From Oscillospiraceae bacterium (lineage in GTDB: Bacteria; Bacillota; Clostridia; Oscillospirales; CAG-272), in NCBI GenBank assembly GCA_015064695.1, contig SVRS01000004.1:32557-96556 (forward strand): a stretch of 64,000 nucleotides of DNA, given 5' to 3'. The notes beneath the pieces are model-generated. The model made no database searches. It was not told where the DNA came from and saw only the letters and a list, made by a program, of their open reading frames with translations. Shown here piece by piece: positions 2,696-13,448 of this stretch (the first letter of the stretch is position 1; each line of letters starts with the position of its first letter). The translations under genes were made by a program, and so were the position numbers.

Positions 2696-2914
2696 TTACG
2701 AATCCTCCAGCGCGTCGTAATCGCGGGAGCGGAAGAGGAGGGAGATGCACCAGATACCGGCCAGAGCGACCACGGTATAGATGATGCGCGCCGCCACGGT
2801 GGCGGCTCCGCCGCAGATCCAGGAGACCAGATCGAACTGGAACAGACCGATGCTACCCCAGTTCAGCGCGCCGATGATGGAAACAATGAGCGCGATGCGA
2901 TCCAAAATCATCAT
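2696..2914 (-). CDS. DUF378-family small membrane protein
   Basis: MMILDRIALIVSIIGALNWGSIGLFQFDLVSWICGG... matches the characteristic DUF378 (YuzA-like) two-TM signature. Start trimmed to the ATGATG at 2909-2914. Confidence 0.7.
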   Translation of the reverse strand: MMILDRIALIVSIIGALNWGSIGLFQFDLVSWICGGAATVAARIIYTVVALAGIWCISLLFRSRDYDALEDS

Positions 2915-3196
2915 AAAAGAACCTATCCTTTCCGAGGTCGGCGTAGAGCCCGCCGCCTCCGTCTTTGTACAAGCGGACAGCGACCCATCCGCGGCGGAAA
3001 CGGCCGCAGACGGCGCGGGTTCGGTCGGCTGATCGGCGTTTTCGTCCATCCATAGTGTGGCGTTTTGCAAAGATATTTATGCGGCCGGACGTGAGTGGGT
3101 AATTGTGGTTTTCGCCGAATTTTTCATGCATCAAAAGTATAGGAAAACTGCCACAAAAAGGGCTGCTTAATTTGTCAAAAAATGCAAGTTTTGCCC

Positions 3197-3366
3197 TGTG
3201 GAAAACTCGCCGCTTTACTCGGATCTCCACAAGTTTTCCCCACCACTTTCCCACAGGCTGTGGATAAGTCTGTGGACTTCTTTGCAAAATTGTGGAAAAA
3301 ACCGCGACCCATAAGGCTTTTTTAGGGTTTTAGTTGGATAAAGTCGGTGTTGGATGCTGTGGATAA
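3197..3366 (-). promoter_or_regulatory. DnaA-box cluster (consensus TTATCCACA read on the minus strand)
   Basis: Perfect TGTGGATAA at 3259..3267 and 3358..3366. One-mismatch TGTGGAAAA at 3197..3205 and 3291..3299. All four share one orientation. Further 2-mismatch sites occur at 3223..3231, 3247..3255 and 3333..3341. The region has no credible ORF. Confidence 0.6.
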
Positions 3367-3483
3367 GCATCGTTTGGTTGTATATCGTTCTTCGGCTGCT
3401 TTGGGAAAAGCTTATGGTAAAAATCAACAAAAAAAGAGGGGTCTCGATGGTCGGTCAAGGCCCCCGCCCTACATCCCCTGCTC

Positions 3484-3513
3484 TTGACAACACACCTCCT
3501 TTCGTGCTATAAT
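3484..3513 (+). promoter_or_regulatory. Sigma-A type promoter upstream of the DUF3006-like gene and M3 peptidase
   Basis: TTGACA (3484..3489), 18-nt spacer, TATAAT (3508..3513). Confidence 0.45.
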
Positions 3514-3540
3514 AAGCCATCCCCCGAAAGGAGACCGTTT

Positions 3541-3717
3541 ATGGAACCCAAGGATTACATCCTCATCAAAATCGAAGGCGAATACGCCTACCTCCGCGAG
3601 GTCAATGAAGCCACCTCCGACAAAGACGTTTACATTGCTCTTGCCCTCCTGCCCGCAGGGGTGGATGTGGGAGACAAATTGCATTACGAGATGTTTACGT
3701 ATACGATCATCGAATAA
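3541..3717 (+). CDS. Small DUF3006-like protein (58 aa)
   Basis: MEPKDYILIKIEGEYAYLREV...LPAGVDVGDKL resembles DUF3006 (xIxRIEGxxAVLE...LPxxxxEGD). AAAGGAG RBS and a TTGACA-18-TATAAT promoter lie upstream. Confidence 0.45.
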   Translation: MEPKDYILIKIEGEYAYLREVNEATSDKDVYIALALLPAGVDVGDKLHYEMFTYTIIE

Positions 3718-3777
3718 CGAAACGCCGCGGACGTCGATTTCGACAAATTACAATTCCATCAGAAAGGAAACAGAATC

Positions 3778-5481
3778 ATGAAATTCACCGAAATGCCCTA
3801 CACCCGCCCCGACATGGAGGCTGTCAAGGCACAATCTGCCGCCCTCACCGCTCGCTTGAGCGAGGCCACCGACTACGCCGCCGCCAAGGTCGCATTCCTG
3901 GAATACCAGGAAGTCCAAAAGCACCTTCAGACCCTCTGCACCCTGGCCGAGGTGCGCCACTCCATCGACACCCGCGACGAGTTCTACGACGCCGAGGTCA
4001 AGTATATCAACGCCACCATGCCCGAGGTACAGGAGTACGCCCAGGCCTTCACCGCCGCCCTGCTGGAATCCCCCTTCCGCGCGGATTTTGCCGCAGAGTA
4101 CGGCGACCTCATGTTCGTCAACGCGGAGATCGCGCTGAAATCCTTCTCCCCTGAGATCATCCCCGAAATGCAGGCTGAAAACGATCTGACCATGGCCTAC
4201 GAAAAGCTGTTGGCCTCCGCGCAGATCCCCTTTGAGAACGGCGTCTATACCCTCTCCCAAATGACTCCCTTTATGTCCGACCCCGACGACAACCGCCGTC
4301 TGGCCGCCTGGAAGGCCAACGGTCAGTGGTACAAGGACAACCAGGCCGAGCTGGACCGCATTTACGACGAGCTGACCCACCTCCGGGACACCATGGGCAA
4401 GAAGCTGGGCTACGAGGGCTACACTACCCTGGGCTACTACCGCATGGGGCGCAACTGCTACACCGAGGCCGACGTAAAGAAGTTCCGCGCCGCCGTGGTA
4501 AAATATCTGGTTCCCGTGGCGGATGCCATCTACCGCGCTCAGGCCGAAAGATTGGGTAAGACCTACCCCATGAGCTACGCAGACAACGCCCTGATGTTCC
4601 GCACGGGGAATCCCCGTCCCTGCGGAAGCGCCGAGGATATTCTCAAGCAGGGCGATAAATTCTACGACGAGCTGTCCCCCGAAACCGCCGAGTTCTTCCG
4701 GATCATGCGTGAGGGAGAGCTTTTGGACGTTCTCTCCACCGAGGGCAAGCAGGGTGGCGGCTACTGCACCGGTATCCCCGACTACGAGGTGCCCTTCATC
4801 TTCGCCAACTTCAACGGCACCCAGGGTGACGTGGAGGTGGTGACCCACGAGGCGGGCCACGCCTTCGCCTGCTGGATGAACCGCGACCGCATTCCCCTGG
4901 ATTACATGTGGCCCTCCATGGAGGCCTGCGAGGTCCACTCCATGTCCATGGAATTCTTTGCCTGGCCTTGGGCTGAGGGATTCTTCGGGCAGGACACCCG
5001 CAAGTTCCTCTACAGCCACCTGGCGGGCGCTCTGACCTTCATCCCCTACGGAACTCTGGTGGATCACTTCCAGCACGAGGTGTATGCGAAGCCCCACATG
5101 ACCCCCGCACAGCGTCACGCCACCTGGAAGGAGCTTATGGGCGTATACATGCCCTGGGTCAAGCTGGACGGCGAGATTCCCTTCTACGCCGAGGGCGAGG
5201 GCTGGCAGAGACAGCACCATATTTACAGTAGTCCCTTCTACTACATCGACTACTGCCTGGCTCAGACCGTAGCTCTCCGCTTCTGGGCAATGATCCAAAA
5301 CGATATGCCCACCGCGTGGTCTCACTATATGGCCTACACCAAGGAGGGCGGCAGCAAGAGCTTCACCGATCTGCTTACCCATGCCGGTCTGGACACGCCC
5401 TTCGACGAGGCCTGCCTGCGCGCCGTCTGCGAGGAGGCCAACAAGTGGCTCTCCGAGTTTGATCTGGGCGGAATCGTCTGA
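3778..5481 (+). CDS. M3-family oligoendopeptidase (PepF-like zinc metallopeptidase)
   Basis: 567 aa with the HEAGHAF zinc motif followed downstream by EVHSMSMEF. Overall length and architecture fit M3B oligoendopeptidase F. Confidence 0.85.
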   Translation: MKFTEMPYTRPDMEAVKAQSAALTARLSEATDYAAAKVAFLEYQEVQKHLQTLCTLAEVRHSIDTRDEFYDAEVKYINATMPEVQEYAQAFTAALLESPFRADFAAEYGDLMFVNAEIALKSFSPEIIPEMQAENDLTMAYEKLLASAQIPFENGVYTLSQMTPFMSDPDDNRRLAAWKANGQWYKDNQAELDRIYDELTHLRDTMGKKLGYEGYTTLGYYRMGRNCYTEADVKKFRAAVVKYLVPVADAIYRAQAERLGKTYPMSYADNALMFRTGNPRPCGSAEDILKQGDKFYDELSPETAEFFRIMREGELLDVLSTEGKQGGGYCTGIPDYEVPFIFANFNGTQGDVEVVTHEAGHAFACWMNRDRIPLDYMWPSMEACEVHSMSMEFFAWPWAEGFFGQDTRKFLYSHLAGALTFIPYGTLVDHFQHEVYAKPHMTPAQRHATWKELMGVYMPWVKLDGEIPFYAEGEGWQRQHHIYSSPFYYIDYCLAQTVALRFWAMIQNDMPTAWSHYMAYTKEGGSKSFTDLLTHAGLDTPFDEACLRAVCEEANKWLSEFDLGGIV

Positions 5482-5513
5482 TCTGCAGGGGCAGGCTATA
5501 GCTTATACGTAAA

Positions 5514-5674
5514 GGGAACCTCTAAAAATTCATCGCATGGAGAATCGACGGAATCTTTTCCGTCATACTTCACAAAAATCCTTCGCGTAGACTCCACTAC
5601 GCGCGCGGACTTTTGTTGCGTCTGACAAAAAATCTTCTCGCCGCTCTCCGCACGCTGAATATTTAGAGGTCCCC
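5514..5674 (+). mobile_element. MITE-like 161-bp TIR element, copy A
   Basis: GGGAACCTCTAAAAATTC...GAATATTTAGAGGTCCCC. Flanked by TAAA on both sides. By eye it is identical to 59908..60068. Confidence 0.7.
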
Positions 5675-5681
5675 TAAAGAA

Positions 5682-5720
5682 ATCCCCCGATGCGGCGGCA
5701 TGCGCTCTGCATCGGGGGAT
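5682..5720. terminator. Hairpin terminator between the M3 peptidase and the HPr-like gene
   Basis: ATCCCCCGATGC-(15 nt)-GCATCGGGGGAT, immediately after MITE copy A. Confidence 0.55.
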
Positions 5721-5754
5721 AAATGTTCAATTTAACGTGATTTTCGTGATGGAA

Positions 5755-6000
5755 TTACGCCTCGGGTGCCTCAACCACGAACTTGCCCAGCAACTCCATC
5801 AGCTCACCAGACTTGTGGTCCTCGTGGAAAATGAGCTGAACGGGCTTGGTCAGATCCAGGCTGAAAATACCCAGGAGAGAACGGCCATCTACGGTATAAC
5901 GGCCGGATACCAGATCTACCTCTCCGTCGAAAGCGAGAAGAGACTTCACAAGGGTGTACACATCGTCAACGGTCGTAAGCTTAATGTAAATGGATTTCAT
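5755..6000 (-). CDS. HPr-like small protein lacking the canonical His15 motif
   Basis: 81 aa MKSIYIKLTTVDDVYTLVKSLLAFDGEVDLVSGRYTVDGRSLLGIFSLDL... The GRSLLGIxSL segment resembles the HPr Ser46 region, but there is no GLHARPA segment. GGAGAA RBS present. Confidence 0.55.
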   Translation of the reverse strand: MKSIYIKLTTVDDVYTLVKSLLAFDGEVDLVSGRYTVDGRSLLGIFSLDLTKPVQLIFHEDHKSGELMELLGKFVVEAPEA

Positions 6001-6306
6001 AGCATTCTCCTTTCCGCCGTATAGAAATACGGCACACGTGCGCCGATCGGTATCCCATTGATCCGTCGGTGCTTTGCAGATCCTGTTTACGCCCAAATTA
6101 TATCGAATTTTTCTGTTTTTGGCAAGATGTAAATTGTATAAAGTTTCCAATTTGTTCTTGCTCTTTTTGTTTCAATTGCACAGAACTCGTCTTGAGCCGC
6201 GCCAATATGCCGAAAGGAAACGATAAATGTCAATCCATATGGGTGCTTTTTTTCTTCCCGCAACGATTTTTTCCGTTCTGAAATCCGTGAATTTCGTCAA
6301 AACCCC

Positions 6307-6335
6307 TTGCAAATTTTTATGAAATGTGCTATACT
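6307..6335 (+). promoter_or_regulatory. Sigma-A type promoter for lysK, giving a ~185-nt leader
   Basis: TTGCAA (6307..6312), 17-nt spacer, TATACT (6330..6335). Confidence 0.4.
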
Positions 6336-6528
6336 AAAATATCTGTAAGTATTCTCGCTTTATTTTACTCAACTGAATCCGTAGGCAATATTGCACAAGG
6401 GTTGCTTCGCAGACGTGCCGCCCGCTTTGCAAGCATAGACGTTTCGTCAAACGCACAAAGGAATCAGCCGTGCATTGTGCATGATTGCCTGTATATCGTA
6501 AAATGCAAAAAGAAGAAAGGAAACCACT

Positions 6529-8586
6529 ATGCATTGGTCAGAAGAAATCGCACAAAGAGTCATCGCCAGAAACCCCGACAAGGAGGAGTACGTCTGCGCC
6601 GCGGGCATAAGCCCCTCGGGCTCTGTTCATATCGGTAATTTCCGTGACATCGCCACCTCCCTGTTCGTCTGCAAGGCCATCGAGAAGCAGGGCAAGCGGG
6701 CCCGCCTTCTGTTCTCCTGGGACGACTTTGACCGTTGCCGCAAGATTCCCGCCAACGTTCAGGCTGCCGTGGGCGATGCCTACGACAAGTATATCGGTAC
6801 TCCCTACGTGGATATCCCCGACCCCTGGGGCTGCCACGAGAACTACGCCGAGCATTTCAAGGCCGAGTTCACCGAGTCCATGAAGAAGTTCGGCATCGAG
6901 ATGGACTACCGCCATCAGGGCAATATGTACCGCTCGGGTGCTTACACTCAGGCTATCATCGAGTCCCTCCGCAAGCGGGAGGAGATCTTCGAGATCCTGG
7001 ACTCCTTCAAGACCAAGGATATGACCAAGTCCGAGGAGGAACGCAAGGCCGAGCACGACGCCGAGAAGGCCAAGTATTCCCCCGTGTCGGTCTTCTGCCC
7101 CGAGTGCGGCACCGACTTCACCACCCTGGAGAACATCTCCGAGGACTGCACCGAGGCAGACTACACCTGCCGTTGCGGCTACCACGGACACATCAACTTC
7201 ACCGAGAACTTCAACTGCAAGCTGGGCTGGAAGATCGACTGGCCCATGCGCTGGAGACACGAGGGCGTAGACTTTGAGCCCGGCGGAAAGGATCACGCCG
7301 CTCCCACCGGCTCCTACTCCAACGCCAAGGTGATCTCCAAGAAGATCTTTGGCTACGAGCCTCCCCTGTTCCAGGGCTACGAGTTCATCGGCATCAAGGG
7401 TCTGGCGGGCAAGATGTCCTCTTCCTCTGGTCTGAACCTCACCCCCGATACCATGCTGAAGCTCTACGAGCCCGAGGTCATTCTGTGGCTCTACTCCAAG
7501 ACCGAGCCCACCAAGGCCTTTGACTTCTGCTTCGACGACGGCATTCTCCGTCAGTACTTTGAGTTCGACAAGATGTACGAGGACTACCGCGCAGGAAGAT
7601 GCAACGAGCGCGACGCCGCCATCATGTACAACTGCGACGTGGCGGGCCACGAGGTCAGCACTGTTCCCATGGGCCTGCTGGTTCAGCTGGGCTCCATCGT
7701 GGACTTCAACGTCCCCATGCTGGAGACGGTATTCGAGAAGATCGGCACGCCCTACACCGCCGAGCAGTTCATGGGCAGACTGGACCGCGCCAAGTACTGG
7801 CTGGAGCAGTGCGCTCCCGAGCAGGTCAACCGTCTGCGTGAAACCCGTAACTTTGAGGTCTACAACACCCTCTCCGACGAGGAAAAGCGTGAGATCGCCC
7901 TTCTCCACGACTATCTGGCCGCAGGCGGCTACGATCTGGATGCGCTGAACGCCGAGCTGTACGCCATTCCCAAGCGAGTCTTTGGGGAGGACAAGCCCGA
8001 CAAGGAGCTGAAGGGTCTGCAGGGCAACTTCTTCAAGACGGTCTACAAGCTGCTCATCGACAAGGAGCGGGGCCCCCGTCTGTACCTGTTCCTGTATGCC
8101 ATCGATCCCGCCCGCTACGTGGGTCTTCTGGACTTCTCCTACGAGCAGACCGCCGAGGAGATGGCAGCCGATCAGGCCGTAGCCGACGCTGAGGCCGCCG
8201 CGAATACCCCCGTGGAGAAGGTCTACGGCGAGCCCGATCCCGTACAGCCCATTTCCACCGACATGGTGACCATGGACGACTTTGGTAAGATGGATATCCG
8301 CGTCTGCAAGATCGTGAAGGTGCAGGAGATCCGCAAGTCTCACTCCTGCTACAAGCTGACCCTGAACGACGGCATCGGCGAGCGGGTCATCGTGTCGAGC
8401 ATCAAGCACGACTACACCATCGACGAGCTGGTGGGCAAGAAGATCATTGTTCTGGCCAACCTCACCCCCACCCGTATCACGGGTGTCACCTCCAACGGTA
8501 TGCTCCTGGCCGCCACCAACAACGCCTGCGGCTGTCAGGTCATCTTCGTGGACGAGAGAGTGCCCGAGGGTACCAGATTGCACTAA
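6529..8586 (+). CDS. lysK: Class I lysine--tRNA ligase fused to a C-terminal OB-fold tRNA-binding domain
   Basis: N-terminus MHWSEEIAQRV...GISPSGSVHIGNFRD (HIGH-type motif) and GKMSSSSG (KMSKS-type) identify class I LysRS. The last ~110 aa, DFGKMDIRVCKIVKVQEIRKSHSCYKLTLNDG...LANLTPTRITGVTSNGMLLAA, have the Trbp111/CsaA/MetRS-C type tRNA-binding signature. Confidence 0.85.
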   Translation: MHWSEEIAQRVIARNPDKEEYVCAAGISPSGSVHIGNFRDIATSLFVCKAIEKQGKRARLLFSWDDFDRCRKIPANVQAAVGDAYDKYIGTPYVDIPDPWGCHENYAEHFKAEFTESMKKFGIEMDYRHQGNMYRSGAYTQAIIESLRKREEIFEILDSFKTKDMTKSEEERKAEHDAEKAKYSPVSVFCPECGTDFTTLENISEDCTEADYTCRCGYHGHINFTENFNCKLGWKIDWPMRWRHEGVDFEPGGKDHAAPTGSYSNAKVISKKIFGYEPPLFQGYEFIGIKGLAGKMSSSSGLNLTPDTMLKLYEPEVILWLYSKTEPTKAFDFCFDDGILRQYFEFDKMYEDYRAGRCNERDAAIMYNCDVAGHEVSTVPMGLLVQLGSIVDFNVPMLETVFEKIGTPYTAEQFMGRLDRAKYWLEQCAPEQVNRLRETRNFEVYNTLSDEEKREIALLHDYLAAGGYDLDALNAELYAIPKRVFGEDKPDKELKGLQGNFFKTVYKLLIDKERGPRLYLFLYAIDPARYVGLLDFSYEQTAEEMAADQAVADAEAAANTPVEKVYGEPDPVQPISTDMVTMDDFGKMDIRVCKIVKVQEIRKSHSCYKLTLNDGIGERVIVSSIKHDYTIDELVGKKIIVLANLTPTRITGVTSNGMLLAATNNACGCQVIFVDERVPEGTRLH

Positions 8587-8672
8587 GGGGAGCGGGAGAA
8601 CGCAAGGAACCTTCTTAAAAGAAGGTTCCTTGACCTCCAAGAACTTTTCGAAAAAGGATTCCTCAAAGAGAT
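8587..8672 (+). repeat. Hairpin-plus-tail intergenic repeat R1
   Basis: GGGGAGCGGGAGAACG + perfect hairpin CAAGGAACCTTC-TTAAAA-GAAGGTTCCTTG (8603..8632) + tail ACCTCCAAGAACTTTTCGAAAAAGG. Confidence 0.6.
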
Positions 8673-8736
8673 CAAATGCCAATTCGCTTATTTTGAAAGG
8701 CCTGCTCCGCAGGTCCTTTTCAGAAAGGAGACCGCT

Positions 8737-9939
8737 ATGAAGTGGCCAAAGCTCAAGCATCCGTTGCTCTGCAACGTGGTTCTTGTGGGTAGCGTGATGG
8801 CACCGCCGATACTTTCTCTTTTTCTCCCGGCTCTACCCGTTGCGGACAATATACATCCTCTTTTGCTCGCTGTCATCATACTTGCTCCGTGGTGTTGGGC
8901 ACTCTGGTTCATGATCAGCCACTACGCCATTCTCATGATGACCAGTATGTGTCTGGAAATGTACCAAGCCTATCTCCACGGCCGCAGACATTTCACCTGT
9001 CCCCAAAACGGGGAAGATCCGGATACCATCCGCAAAAGAATCCTTCGCCGTGTGGGGCGGTTCGGCTCTCCGTATGAGGTCAAGGCAGTCCCTCCGGAGC
9101 TTTTGACCATCCGGTACAAGAATTCCCCCTCCGGCACGGTCTACTACAACCGCATCGAAAAGCTCCTGCTCGTGTATGAGGCGGACATCCTTGACGGGGA
9201 AGCCTTCCGCAAGCTGTGGCAATCCGCCCACGCCATCGCCAACATCATCGGCAGGGAGCAAAAGCCCCTGTACCGTAAGCCCAAGGGGCACTCCAAGGAT
9301 AACTCGGTATCGGTAGTTGCGGTGATTCTGGCAAATACCGTTTCCCCCGATATGGCCGCCAAGCTGGTTGAGACAGAGATCAGAACAGACGATCGTCATG
9401 TGCTTTTCTGTGCCGTGGAGCTTTCGAACGCCAAATACTACTTCGACAACCAGAAAGAGCCCTTCATGTTTGCTTATCCCGTGAAGAACCGCGCCGTTAA
9501 CCTGATCCACCGCGTTGTGTTCGGCGGACGGGTACCCCTGCGGAGCAATCCCCATATGCTCCCCGAGCCCCAGTGGGCGGAGCAGGACGGATTCTCCCCC
9601 GAGGAATCCCTGTGGAGCTTCATGAAGCACTTGCAAAAGGAGCTCAAAGGGTTCGGACGCCGGGGAAAAAAGATGCTTCAAAATATGCCCGCCGACACCG
9701 TACACATGGACGACAGCTGGCTGTACTGCAAGATCGGGGACCGCGTGTCCACCATGATGGTAGATGACGACGAAATCGACCCGCAGAAAAAGCAGGTCAC
9801 CCTCTCCTTGAATTGGTATTATCCCAAATCCAACCGCATTTCCAAAAAGGATAACGCTACCATTCGCCGCCTGACCGAGGAATTCCTCCATGGGCAGGGC
9901 TTTGAGGTGACCTTTACAGATCCCTATGCCGATGAATAG
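8737..9939 (+). CDS. Hypothetical membrane-anchored protein (400 aa)
   Basis: AAAGGAG RBS, two N-terminal hydrophobic helices, and non-repetitive amino-acid composition. No family recognised. Confidence 0.6.
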   Translation: MKWPKLKHPLLCNVVLVGSVMAPPILSLFLPALPVADNIHPLLLAVIILAPWCWALWFMISHYAILMMTSMCLEMYQAYLHGRRHFTCPQNGEDPDTIRKRILRRVGRFGSPYEVKAVPPELLTIRYKNSPSGTVYYNRIEKLLLVYEADILDGEAFRKLWQSAHAIANIIGREQKPLYRKPKGHSKDNSVSVVAVILANTVSPDMAAKLVETEIRTDDRHVLFCAVELSNAKYYFDNQKEPFMFAYPVKNRAVNLIHRVVFGGRVPLRSNPHMLPEPQWAEQDGFSPEESLWSFMKHLQKELKGFGRRGKKMLQNMPADTVHMDDSWLYCKIGDRVSTMMVDDDEIDPQKKQVTLSLNWYYPKSNRISKKDNATIRRLTEEFLHGQGFEVTFTDPYADE

Positions 9940-10071
9940 AGGTGCCATAGAACGAGCCTGTGCGGGACGAGTCACCCGTGCAGGCTTTTTTTTCGGAGGA
10001 GGGGACGATTTTGGCCGCACCCCTTGCAATCTCCCGCAAAATATGTTACAATATAAGAAAACGAAATTCCC

Positions 10072-10145
10072 TTGCTAAAGTTTTTGGGAATCCAAAACCC
10101 TTTTTTCAAAAAGGGTTTTGGCCGCCGGAGGCTCGCTCCCCCCGC
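10072..10145 (-). repeat. Hairpin-plus-tail intergenic repeat R2 (inverted)
   Basis: The reverse complement reads GGGGGAGCGAGCCTCCGGCGGC + CCAAAACCCTTTTT-GA-AAAAAGGGTTTTGG + ATTCCCAAAAACTTT. It lies between the ygiQ promoter and the start codon. Confidence 0.6.
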
Positions 10146-10171
10146 AAATTTTCCCCGAAAGGACACGCCTT

Positions 10172-12211
10172 ATGCCTACTGTTTCCGATTTTCTCCCCTT
10201 GACCCGCGCCGATATGGATGCCCGCGGGTGGGACCGCCCCGATTTTGTCTACGTCACGGGTGACGCCTATGTGGATCACCCCTCCTTTGGCGTGTCCATC
10301 ATCTCCCGCGTCCTGGAGGCCGAGGGCTTTCGGGTGGCCATCCTGTCCCAGCCCGATTATAAGTCAGCCGAGGCCTTCAAGGAGTACGGACGTCCTCGAT
10401 TGGGCTTTTTGGTGACGGCGGGCAACATCGACTCCATGGTGGCTCACTACACCGCCGCCAAGCGCAAGCGCACCTACGATTACTACTCCGCGGGGGGCAA
10501 GATGGGGAACCGCCCCGACAGAGCCACCATCGTTTACTGCAACCGCATCCGCGAGGCCTACGGTGACGTGCCCATCATCATCGGCGGCCTGGAGGCCTCC
10601 CTCCGCCGCTTCGCTCACTACGACTACTGGGACGATAAGGTGCGCCGCTCGGTCCTGGTGGACAGCCGCGCCGATATCCTGACCTACGGTATGGGGGAGA
10701 ATATTCTCCGCCGCATTGCAAGGTTGCTTGACAAAGGTGTGCCCATCCGCAAGATCCGGGACGTGCGGGGCACCTGCTACCTCTGCAAGACCGAAGAGCG
10801 CGACACCATCCACTTTCCCGTGGCGGCTACCTTTGATTACAACGAGCTGAAAACCGACAAGCACAAGTACGCCGAGGCCTTTGGCGTCCAGTACCGCAAC
10901 CAGGACGCCATAAACGGCAAGGCCATCTGCGAGGTCTACGACAATAAGATCCTCGTCCAGAATCCCCCCATGCCTCCCTTGGAGCGGGAAGAGCTGGACG
11001 CCGTCTACGCCCTGCCCTACACCCGCACCTACCACCCCTCCTACGAGAAGGACGGCGGCGTGCCCGGTATCGAGGAGGTGCGCTTCTCGGTGACCCATAA
11101 CCGCGGTTGCTTCGGTGCCTGCAATTTCTGCGCCCTGGCCTTTCACCAGGGCAGAACCGTGCGCTCCCGCAGCATCGAGTCGGTGGTGGCCGAGGCCAAG
11201 CAGATCACCGAAATGCCTGACTTTAAGGGCTACATCCACGACGTGGGCGGTCCCACCGCCAACTTCCGCTATCCTGCCTGCAAGAAACAGCTGGAGAGCG
11301 GCGTTTGCGCCAACCGCAAGTGTCTCGCCCCCAAGCCCTGCCCCAATCTCATTGCCGATCACTCCGAGTATATCGAGCTTCTGCAAGCCATCGAGGCTCT
11401 GCCCAAGGTGAAGAAGGTGTTCATCCGCTCGGGCATCCGCTTTGACTATCTGCTGGCCGATCCCAAGGACGACTTCTTCCGCAAGCTGGTGAAGGATCAC
11501 GTATCGGGACAGCTCAAGGTCGCCCCCGAGCATTGTGCCTCCCCCGTTCTGCGATGCATGGGCAAGCCCGATTTCCACGTCTACGAGACCTTCCGCAAGA
11601 AGTATTTCGAGCTTTCCAAGGAATGCGGCAAGGAGCAATACCTGGTGCCCTACCTCATGTCCAGCCACCCGGGCTCGACTTTGAACGAGGCCATTGATCT
11701 GGCTCTCTGCCTCAAGCGGGATCACTATGCTCCCGAGCAGGTGCAGGATTATTATCCCACCCCCGGCACGGCCTCTACCGTTATGTTCTACACCGGCATC
11801 AATCCCCTGGACATGAAGCCTGTCCACGTGGTCACCGACTACCACGAAAAACAGCTCCAGCGCGCCCTGCTCCAGTACAACCGCCCCGAGAACGCCGATC
11901 TGGTTCGCGAGGCTCTGACCAAGGCGGGACGAACCGATCTCATCGGCTTTGGCCCCGAATGCCTGGTGCGCCCCGCAGGGGGAAGACCGAGCCCCGATCA
12001 CCGCACCTCGGAGAGAAGGTCCGGCGCCGGGAAACCGGCCTCGGTCAAAACGGCCACAGGCAAGGCTTCCTCCGCCAAGACCTCCTCCGGGAAGCCGGCC
12101 GCCGACAGAACGGCCAACGGAAAGCCCGCGAGGGGCAAGCCCTCCTTTGACAAACCCGCCTCCAAGGGCGGTAAAGCTCCCGCCAAGAACGGCGGCCGGG
12201 GAAGGAGATAA
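10172..12211 (+). CDS. ygiQ: YgiQ-family radical SAM protein (UPF0313) with basic K/P/G-rich tail
   Basis: MPTVSDFLPLTRADMDARGWDRPDFVYVTGDAYVDHPSFGVSIISRVLEAEGFRVAILSQPDY plus HNRGCFGACNFCAL (CxxxCxxC cluster). ATG at 10172 chosen inside ORF 10118..12211. Confidence 0.85.
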   Translation: MPTVSDFLPLTRADMDARGWDRPDFVYVTGDAYVDHPSFGVSIISRVLEAEGFRVAILSQPDYKSAEAFKEYGRPRLGFLVTAGNIDSMVAHYTAAKRKRTYDYYSAGGKMGNRPDRATIVYCNRIREAYGDVPIIIGGLEASLRRFAHYDYWDDKVRRSVLVDSRADILTYGMGENILRRIARLLDKGVPIRKIRDVRGTCYLCKTEERDTIHFPVAATFDYNELKTDKHKYAEAFGVQYRNQDAINGKAICEVYDNKILVQNPPMPPLEREELDAVYALPYTRTYHPSYEKDGGVPGIEEVRFSVTHNRGCFGACNFCALAFHQGRTVRSRSIESVVAEAKQITEMPDFKGYIHDVGGPTANFRYPACKKQLESGVCANRKCLAPKPCPNLIADHSEYIELLQAIEALPKVKKVFIRSGIRFDYLLADPKDDFFRKLVKDHVSGQLKVAPEHCASPVLRCMGKPDFHVYETFRKKYFELSKECGKEQYLVPYLMSSHPGSTLNEAIDLALCLKRDHYAPEQVQDYYPTPGTASTVMFYTGINPLDMKPVHVVTDYHEKQLQRALLQYNRPENADLVREALTKAGRTDLIGFGPECLVRPAGGRPSPDHRTSERRSGAGKPASVKTATGKASSAKTSSGKPAADRTANGKPARGKPSFDKPASKGGKAPAKNGGRGRR

Positions 12212-12214
12212 GCC

Positions 12215-13258
12215 GTGGCACTCAATATTCTGAAGGAAGCCGACTTCCGCAAGGAGCTGAAGGCGGCCGCTACGGGAGGCTACCTCTTTTTCGGAGAGGA
12301 GGACTACATGAAGTCCGCCTCCATCCGCATGGCGCGGCAGAGTGTAGCCGAGGCCGACCCCACCATGGCCGCCTTTGACGATATCCGTCTGGACGGTCTG
12401 GACTTCACCCCTGCGGCTCTGTTGGATGCAATGTCCGTTCCTCCCATGGGTGGAAGCCGCAAGGTCATCACGATCACGGGTATGAATTTCAACGCCCTCC
12501 GCGCCGCCGACCTGGACAAGCTCTGCGAGGCCTTGGCCGAGATCCCATCTTATCCCTACAATTTGGTGATCTTCTCCGCCGCCGCCGATGCTTTGGATGG
12601 GGGAAATCTGCCCAAAAAGCCCTCCGAGCTACTGACCACTCTGGGGGAATATCTCCGTCCCGTCTATTTCGAACGGAACACCCCCGCCAAGCTTGCGGGC
12701 TGGGTACAGAAGCACTACCTCCACAACGGAGTACAGGCGGATCCTTCCGTCTGCCAGTTCACCGTGGAATACTGCGGGCGAAATATGTTCACCCTGTCCG
12801 GGGAGATCGACAAGGTCTCCTTCTACGTCCGCGCCAAGGGACGGGATACCGCCACCGAGGCCGACATTCGTACCGCCGCCATCCCCGCCATGGAGTATGA
12901 TGCCTTTGCCTTCACCAACGCCATCATGGAGCGAAGACGGGGGGATGCCCTGGATATTCTGGCGGATCTGAAGCTCCGTCGGGTGGAACCCCTGTACATT
13001 CTCTCAGAGGTCTCCCGCGTGGTCTGCGATCTCATGGCCATCCGCACCATGGCTGACGGAGGCCACACCTCCGCCGAGATCGGATCCTCCCTCAAAATGC
13101 ACGAATACCGTGTGGGTCTCTACATGAAGCAGGCCCGCAAAGCCGATCTTGCCCTCCTGCGTGGCGCGGTCACCGCCTGCCAGGCCGCTGACAGAGCCCT
13201 CAAGCGCTCGGCGGGCGACGGGTACGGCATCATTGAACGGTTGATCTGTACGCTTTAA
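12215..13258 (+). CDS. holA: DNA polymerase III subunit delta
   Basis: 347 aa. N-terminus LKAAATGGYLFFGEEDYMK with HolA-like length and layout. GTG start 3 nt after the ygiQ stop, with GGAAGGAG RBS. Confidence 0.75.
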   Translation: MALNILKEADFRKELKAAATGGYLFFGEEDYMKSASIRMARQSVAEADPTMAAFDDIRLDGLDFTPAALLDAMSVPPMGGSRKVITITGMNFNALRAADLDKLCEALAEIPSYPYNLVIFSAAADALDGGNLPKKPSELLTTLGEYLRPVYFERNTPAKLAGWVQKHYLHNGVQADPSVCQFTVEYCGRNMFTLSGEIDKVSFYVRAKGRDTATEADIRTAAIPAMEYDAFAFTNAIMERRRGDALDILADLKLRRVEPLYILSEVSRVVCDLMAIRTMADGGHTSAEIGSSLKMHEYRVGLYMKQARKADLALLRGAVTACQAADRALKRSAGDGYGIIERLICTL

Positions 13259-13269
13259 CCTATGGACAT

Positions 13270-13394
13270 TTCAAAAAATCCCTTCGCGCAGAGACGTCTA
13301 CGCGAAGGGATTTTTTCATGCTCACGGGAAAGGCTGACGAAAAAACCTTTTTCGCGAGCCGTTTTCCGTGCGTTCAATATGCAGAGATTCCCCT
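13270..13394 (-). repeat. Degenerate MITE-family relic F
   Basis: CGCGAAGGGATTTTTTCATGCTCACGGGAAAGG...CCGTTTTCCGTGCGTTCAATATGCAGAGATTCCCC parallels the central hairpin and right half of copies B and C. Its hairpin AAATCCCTTCGCG...CGCGAAGGGATTT also looks like the holA terminator. Confidence 0.4.
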
Positions 13395-13448
13395 TACGAA
13401 GGACCATTTTACATCTTATACTAATCCTTGACAAAAACATTGAATAGA

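Follow-up and report, generated by a model that had tools for sequence, protein, structure and literature searches.

A putative non-origin DnaA-binding locus conserved in a genus of uncultured Clostridia from the herbivore gut

Experimental work on DnaA-box clusters outside the replication origin is, to our knowledge, limited to a few model bacteria, and no RIDA/DARS cycle is known in Firmicutes. In Escherichia coli, the datA locus is thought to lower the initiation potential and acts via IHF-dependent hydrolysis of DnaA-ATP. The sda region of Bacillus subtilis (DBC[yqeG-sda]), with DnaA boxes upstream of a small gene, belongs to the same broad comE-holA-lepA neighbourhood of Firmicutes that is dealt with here. 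The DnaA-box clusters (DBCs) of B. subtilis that lie outside oriC restrain initiation and act best near oriC (PMC3245932). The core of E. coli DARS1 consists of three boxes, of which box I is opposed to box II and box III stands in tandem with box II (PMC6868365); as read from NC_000913, it runs TTATCCACT-ATTCC-TGTGGATAA-CCA-TGTGTATTA. The locus described below lies in the window, i.e., the whole stretch of 64,000 nucleotides that was analysed (positions 32557-96556 of contig C58), which is part of a 2.53-Mb assembly in 81 contigs. All coordinates without a contig name are those of the window.

A cluster of DnaA boxes in a gene-free gap

An earlier note on this DNA had drawn attention to a dense group of DnaA boxes in a region free of credible open reading frames and with no dnaA gene nearby. 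The region is a gap of 627 bp between the DUF378 gene, which starts at 2914 on the minus strand, and the next gene on the plus strand. The two perfect and the two one-mismatch boxes of the note were all recovered where it had placed them, and its count of at least three two-mismatch sites proved cautious, as there are four of these (beginning at 3223, 3234, 3247 and 3333) plus a three-mismatch site at 3271. The features of the gap and its edges are the following:

ending at 1769: rarA (MgsA_C match)
2696-2914, minus strand: DUF378 gene, left neighbour of the cluster (PF04070, E=2.8e-25)
3195-3400: conserved nine-box DnaA-box module of about 205 bp, non-coding
3197-3205, minus strand: DnaA box 1, TTTTCCACA, one mismatch; identical in 9 of 13 orthologues
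3223-3231, plus strand: DnaA box 2, ATCTCCACA, two mismatches; most relatives have TTTTCCACA
3234-3242, plus strand: two-mismatch DnaA site, TTTTCCCCA
3247-3255, plus strand: DnaA box 3, TTTCCCACA, two mismatches; 88% pairwise identity
3259-3267, minus strand: DnaA box 4, TTATCCACA, perfect; 92% pairwise identity
3271-3279: DnaA box 5, TGTGGACTT, three mismatches yet invariant in relatives; 91% pairwise identity
3247-3279: invariant three-box core formed by boxes 3 to 5, TTTCCCACA-GGC-TGTGGATAA-GTC-TGTGGACTT, layout > N3 < N3 <
3291-3299, minus strand: DnaA box 6, TTTTCCACA, one mismatch; weakly conserved, 67% pairwise identity
3333-3341, minus strand: DnaA box 7, TTATCCAAC, two mismatches; within a conserved GTYGGNTAAAGTCG block
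3358-3366, minus strand: DnaA box 8, TTATCCACA, perfect; 85% pairwise identity
3389-3397, plus strand: DnaA box 9, a degenerate remnant in this genome, TCTTCGGCT
3484-3513, plus strand: consensus promoter TTGACA-18-TATAAT of the 58-aa open reading frame and pepF
3542-3717, plus strand: small open reading frame of 58 aa, right neighbour, after the promoter

The density of boxes had been said to exceed chance, and this was borne out. When the 627-bp gap was simulated 20,000 times by a first-order Markov model of its dinucleotide composition, a single run contained at least four boxes (a frequency of 5e-5), which sets the four boxes found within 170 bp at P of about 5e-5. The genome as a whole contains 16 perfect and 552 one-mismatch boxes, and places with at least four boxes inside 300 bp occur three times in the 2.53-Mb assembly. 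The other two are both on contig C32, in the spacer between dnaA and dnaN and in the gap between gyrB and mreC, and the cluster in the window is the sole one of the three that is not beside dnaA. Within the window's first 10 kb, boxes with at most one mismatch are confined to the four strong ones listed above, and the boxes of the cluster match the type found in this genome's own dnaA-dnaN spacer, TTWTCCACA.

Four open reading frames within the gap were tested and none is conserved, since their frames shift and stop codons arise in relatives; a hidden gene was thus ruled out, as the earlier note had supposed. A structured RNA was ruled out by the lack of any Rfam match in the gap at E<=1, and a mobile element or a plasmid or phage replication element by the lack of any blastn match to the cluster in plasmid and phage collections. 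The promoter at 3484 that the note had named is real as a consensus match. On the other side of the gap, a stretch of 29 nt upstream of DUF378 (3034-3062) is 97% identical in G017, a genome in which DUF378 is not beside the cluster, and this stretch is probably DUF378's own promoter or leader element.

Conservation of the module and changes in its neighbourhood

The relatives available for comparison are MAGs of uncultured Clostridia, Eubacteriales and Oscillospiraceae from the gut of goat, deer, sheep, horse and cattle. When they were searched at the DNA level, window positions 3195-3370 recurred and the flanks did not. Among the 29 genomes of the genus, a covariance model (R1), sequence-only and built from seven copies in seven genomes, retrieved full-length orthologues from 13, with scores of 81-170 bits; conservation in relatives, which the earlier note had named as a check on its proposal, is thus present. 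In the 13-way alignment the nine boxes hold their order, orientation and spacing. The note had also stated that the four best boxes share one orientation, and this is correct for these four in the present genome, whereas the conserved arrangement combines both directions, < > > < < < < < >. Of its three boxes pointing to the right, two are weakened and one is lost in this genome, and in most relatives they have no or one mismatch. For the lost one, box 9, ten of the other 12 orthologues have TTTTCCACA, and the remaining two have one mismatch.

Mean pairwise identity in this alignment is 82% for the box columns, 52% for the spacers (non-box columns of the core) and 28% for the flanks. For holA, compared in 12 genomes, it is 82% over all sites and 63% at four-fold degenerate sites. 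Because the boxes reach 82% as compared with 52% in the spacers and 63% at the four-fold degenerate sites of holA, they are under purifying selection similar in strength to that acting on a protein-coding gene. Boxes 3, 4 and 5, with pairwise identities of 88-92%, are the most conserved part. Their strict pattern, CCACA-N3-TGTGG-N7-TGTGG, has two sites in the genome, one in the window cluster and the other in the gyrB-mreC cluster, and the dnaA-dnaN spacer contains a version with one mismatch in the middle box. Among 301 genomes of the class, seven contain the strict pattern and none its reversed control. In other families the three-box core is found in box clusters 19-48 kb from dnaA (loci L187/L191 in G244:C133, L185/L190 in G064:C1 and L182 in G302:C1), and G244 has three copies of it at a spacing of about 300-350 bp.

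The gyrB-mreC cluster (C32:9841-10292, locus L029) fills a gap of 520 bp, lies 5.6 kb from the dnaA-dnaN origin and is itself a non-origin cluster; two of its boxes are perfect, and the module made of an opposed pair and three boxes occurs in it twice. Weak matches to the model elsewhere in the genus occur as pairs about 5.7 kb apart, like the dnaA-dnaN and gyrB-mreC clusters here, and this pairing suggests that the gyrB-mreC cluster is kept throughout the genus.

The genes around the module, unlike the module itself, change among genomes. Two further features are needed for its description:

about 3440-13400: block of about 10 kb, inverted relative to G016 and other relatives, breakpoints inferred
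12215-13258, plus strand: holA, DNA polymerase III delta (TIGR01128, 179 bits vs a cut-off of 80)

In 10 of the 13 orthologous loci the module is located past the stop codon of holA, at a distance of 40-300 bp and of up to about 400 bp in G044, and six of the 13 genomes have DUF378 on its other side. In G016 the order is rarA, HTH, DUF378 (minus strand), cluster, holA (minus), ygiQ (minus), lysK (minus) and the gene for an HPr-like protein (plus), whereas the window has DUF378 (minus), cluster, small open reading frame (plus), pepF (plus), HPr-like gene (minus), lysK (plus), ygiQ (plus) and holA (plus). An inversion of about 10 kb with a breakpoint just to the right of the cluster would explain this gene order and would have split holA from the cluster. 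The block contains the small open reading frame, pepF, a MITE, the HPr-like gene, lysK, a gene for a membrane protein, ygiQ and holA; one of its breakpoints adjoins the DnaA-box cluster and the other a MITE-like relic after holA. Box 9 was lost at the edge of the inversion. The conserved partner and ancestral neighbour of the cluster is holA, now 9 kb away from it in this genome, a link that the earlier note had not seen. We found no paper linking DnaA boxes with holA in Clostridia in a literature search.

It follows from the inversion that the promoter at 3484 is a recent neighbour of the cluster. Homology to the unit formed by promoter and small open reading frame begins at about 3475-3505 in relatives, where it is found on other contigs. 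More generally, the left flank of the module varies (DUF378, the HPr-like gene, others), and so does the right flank (holA, a gene for a 940-aa protein, the small open reading frame). The module persists when either neighbour is replaced, and this persistence is our chief reason for taking it to act autonomously. The feature is real, and its conservation within this genus of uncultured Clostridia from the herbivore gut does not depend on which genes flank it.

At least six more distant members of the genus (G011, G013, G019, G022, G024 and G005) have two to five boxes after holA, including the three-box core, and a small HPr-like gene usually follows these boxes. In other genera, two to four co-oriented boxes lie directly after holA, and the promoter of the HPr-like gene comes 150-200 bp further on. 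Altogether, 23 of 72 holA loci have at least two boxes within 300 bp downstream of holA, and the 2 kb upstream almost never do. The HPr-like gene, whose ancestral place in many related genera is after the boxes linked to holA, has no boxes alongside in this genome (5755-6000, minus strand); its product of 81 aa gives a sub-threshold match to PTS-HPr (E=0.096) and could be a small DnaA-controlled effector.

Interpretation of the module

The earlier note had offered three explanations for the cluster: a secondary cluster of the DBC type, a promoter controlled by DnaA in the manner of sda, and an origin displaced from dnaA. The first fares best. We consider it rather probable, although far from settled, that the module is a locus at which DnaA binds and which acts autonomously outside the origin, in the manner of the B. 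subtilis DBCs: dnaA and the origin are on another contig, the cluster is one of three in the genome, and it is conserved whatever its neighbours. About nine boxes in fixed order, orientation and spacing would recruit DnaA into a stable complex away from oriC. Most likely, the module would then hold or remodel DnaA and in this way tune the amount of active DnaA that reaches oriC, like the DBCs of B. subtilis and datA of E. coli, and any effect on neighbouring promoters would be secondary. Binding of DnaA to the module in vivo and an effect on initiation are what we infer. Three observations speak against a DBC. In the closed relative G022 the site is 318 kb, or about 64 degrees, away from dnaA, whereas the DBCs of B. 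subtilis act best near oriC (PMC3245932); the rigid geometry exceeds the needs of simple titration; and in more distant genera the boxes precede the promoter of an HPr-like gene, to which we return below.

Possible as well, and with the odds clearly against it, is that the cluster is mainly a DnaA-dependent transcriptional element, either an activator or repressor site as at sda or an insulator or roadblock between holA and the next co-oriented gene. It would then couple the expression of the small gene downstream (HPr-like, DUF378) to the replication status, an idea that we hold to be just as doubtful. The ancestral layout speaks for it, because the boxes are always placed between the 3' end of holA and a co-oriented small gene, and the HPr-like gene of other genera has a TTGACA-17-TATAAT promoter about 150-200 bp beyond the boxes; in the window, too, the cluster sits between two divergent genes. 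On the other hand, the gene downstream is not the same in all genomes, the nine-box module was kept after parting from the HPr-like gene, the relocated HPr-like gene at 5755-6000 took no boxes along, DUF378 retains its own conserved upstream region of 150 bp when it is away from the cluster, and no box in the window comes closer than 118 bp to a -35 element. A site of the sda type would be expected to keep its place relative to a particular gene's promoter, and this is not seen, as the 13 orthologues do not share the same neighbours. Only in G000 (this genome) is the promoter at 3484 beside the cluster, through a genome-specific inversion, and DUF378 is adjacent in 6 of 13 cases; as a reason for the conservation, the sda-like promoter proposed earlier was therefore abandoned. 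The promoter some 150-200 bp beyond the boxes in distant genera means that the ancestral role of the holA-linked boxes may nevertheless have been transcriptional.

It appears improbable that the module is a DARS-like site at which a head-to-head pair of DnaA molecules undergoes nucleotide exchange or disassembly, i.e., a site that remodels DnaA rather than titrating it passively. The idea derives from the core, the most conserved part of the module. At 3247-3279, box I is opposed to box II and boxes II and III point in the same direction, the middle box has the perfect consensus and the spacer between boxes II and III measures 3 bp, all as in E. coli DARS1 (PMC6868365), and the strict pattern is very rare in the genome and in the class, with its reversed control at zero. 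However, the spacer between boxes I and II is 3 bp long (GGC) in the window and 3 bp in 13 of 13 orthologues, as opposed to 5 bp in DARS1. The triple is not confined to the window either: the gyrB-mreC cluster contains it, as does, with the mismatch in the middle box, the dnaA-dnaN origin, and it may thus be a general nucleation unit. Gln208 of E. coli DnaA, which is needed for DARS activity, aligns with Asn here, a difference that decides nothing. If it were nonetheless true, which we doubt strongly, the core would be a Gram-positive counterpart of DARS that remodels or recharges DnaA, and an ancient unit past holA across several lineages of uncultured Clostridia. As matters stand, the likeness to DARS1 is best taken as a resemblance in layout and not as evidence of membership.

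The remaining proposal, a second or displaced origin, was examined against the origin that this genome already has. In agreement with the earlier note, there is no dnaA near the cluster; the gene and a complete origin module are on a different contig:

C32:2780-4219: dnaA, followed by dnaN, recF, gyrB, mreC and gyrA

The dnaA-dnaN spacer of 636 bp contains more than 12 boxes of the TTWTCCACA type. At its end follow, in this order, the tandem pair TTTCCACAGTTTCCACC, TCCC, a run of trios (read from the sequence as CTA CAA ATA CTA CTT CTG GTA TTC) and, immediately ahead of dnaN, an AT-rich tract. A layout of box pair, TCCC spacer, trios and AT tract constitutes the basal unwinding system (PMC8287927), on C32 the skew changes sign at about 6 kb, from negative to positive, and the dnaA-dnaN spacer is the canonical origin. 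Its neighbourhood (C32:1-14000, locus L029) is unusual in that a pyruvate:ferredoxin oxidoreductase gene precedes dnaA instead of rpmH; mreC and an ECF-S-like gene are located between gyrB and gyrA. A second DnaA paralogue was considered on account of a weak PF00308 match on C23 and rejected, as the protein, by sequence reading, is a DnaC/DnaI-like loader encoded beside a DnaD-like gene.

For the cluster in the window we applied the rule that at least three DnaA-trios, (.T.){3,} with the central A on the bound strand, should lie within 16 nt downstream of a box (PMC8287927). Such runs were found at none of the eight boxes of the cluster with up to two mismatches; the automated rule also missed the dnaA-dnaN spacer, because the proximal box there has three mismatches. 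The longest NTN/NAN runs, taken as a proxy for trios, did not discriminate, as runs of 3-7 arise by chance at unconserved positions of the flanks. The AT-richest 30 bp (3406-3435, 80% A+T) are outside the conserved core and common to some close relatives only (e.g., G016), not across the 13 orthologues. On C58, where the cluster is more than 35 kb from both contig ends, the skew is unchanged at the cluster, a weak test since it tracks gene orientation there. Over C58:1-55000 the coding strand is C-rich, the skew follows gene orientation and gives no clean replication signal, and gene orientation diverges at about 20 kb, 12 kb ahead of the start of the window. A more informative profile comes from G022, the only closed relative (1.78 Mb, single contig). 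Here negative skew extends over 90-830 kb and positive skew over 990-1,550 kb, with the switch near dnaA at 903 kb; holA and its boxes at 1,220-1,221.6 kb (site at 1,221.5 kb) have positive skew on both sides and lie within one skew arm. In G022, holA is split over three reading frames (C1:1220422-1221395) and marker completeness is 59%, which suggests an error-rich long-read assembly whose gene calls need care and whose skew profile is still clear.

A second or displaced origin is therefore very hard to credit: many DnaA boxes in a gene-free gap, genes that diverge from it and the tract with 80% A+T might recall one, but the cluster lacks the trio runs that follow the tandem pair at dnaA-dnaN, its AT tract is not conserved, the divergent layout is a product of the inversion, and the skew of G022 switches near dnaA (about 830-990 kb) and stays positive either side of the orthologous site, 318 kb away.

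Comparison with described systems

The module shows that uncultured gut Clostridia maintain a non-origin DnaA-box locus, on which purifying selection acts as strongly as it does on a protein-coding gene, and this locus combines a fixed nine-box geometry, a core with a layout like that of E. coli DARS and survival of rearrangements that replaced either neighbour. With the defined fragment of 205 bp, a substrate for binding and initiation assays is now on hand. The cluster may be regarded as a further, putative example of the known extra-origin docking sites for DnaA, and it resembles each of the described ones in part.

With the sda region of B. subtilis it shares DnaA boxes upstream of a small gene; unlike there, no sda homologue is present, and the boxes persist without the adjacent small gene, which is not the same in every genome. 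With E. coli DARS1 it shares the features of the core set out above; unlike DARS1, the core is embedded among six further boxes, the triple also occurs at or near this genome's oriC, and the lineage differs. Like E. coli datA, it is a non-origin cluster of predicted high-affinity boxes.

The closest counterparts are the DBCs of B. subtilis (PMC3245932). The module differs from them in its position after holA, which matches none of the six B. subtilis sites, in its distance of about 64 degrees from oriC in one closed relative, in its rigid nine-box geometry with an invariant three-box core and in its occurrence in uncultured Clostridia. Like them, it is found in a Firmicute as an intergenic cluster of consensus and near-consensus boxes away from oriC, belongs to a handful of such clusters per genome, is conserved in relatives and appears to be without origin function.
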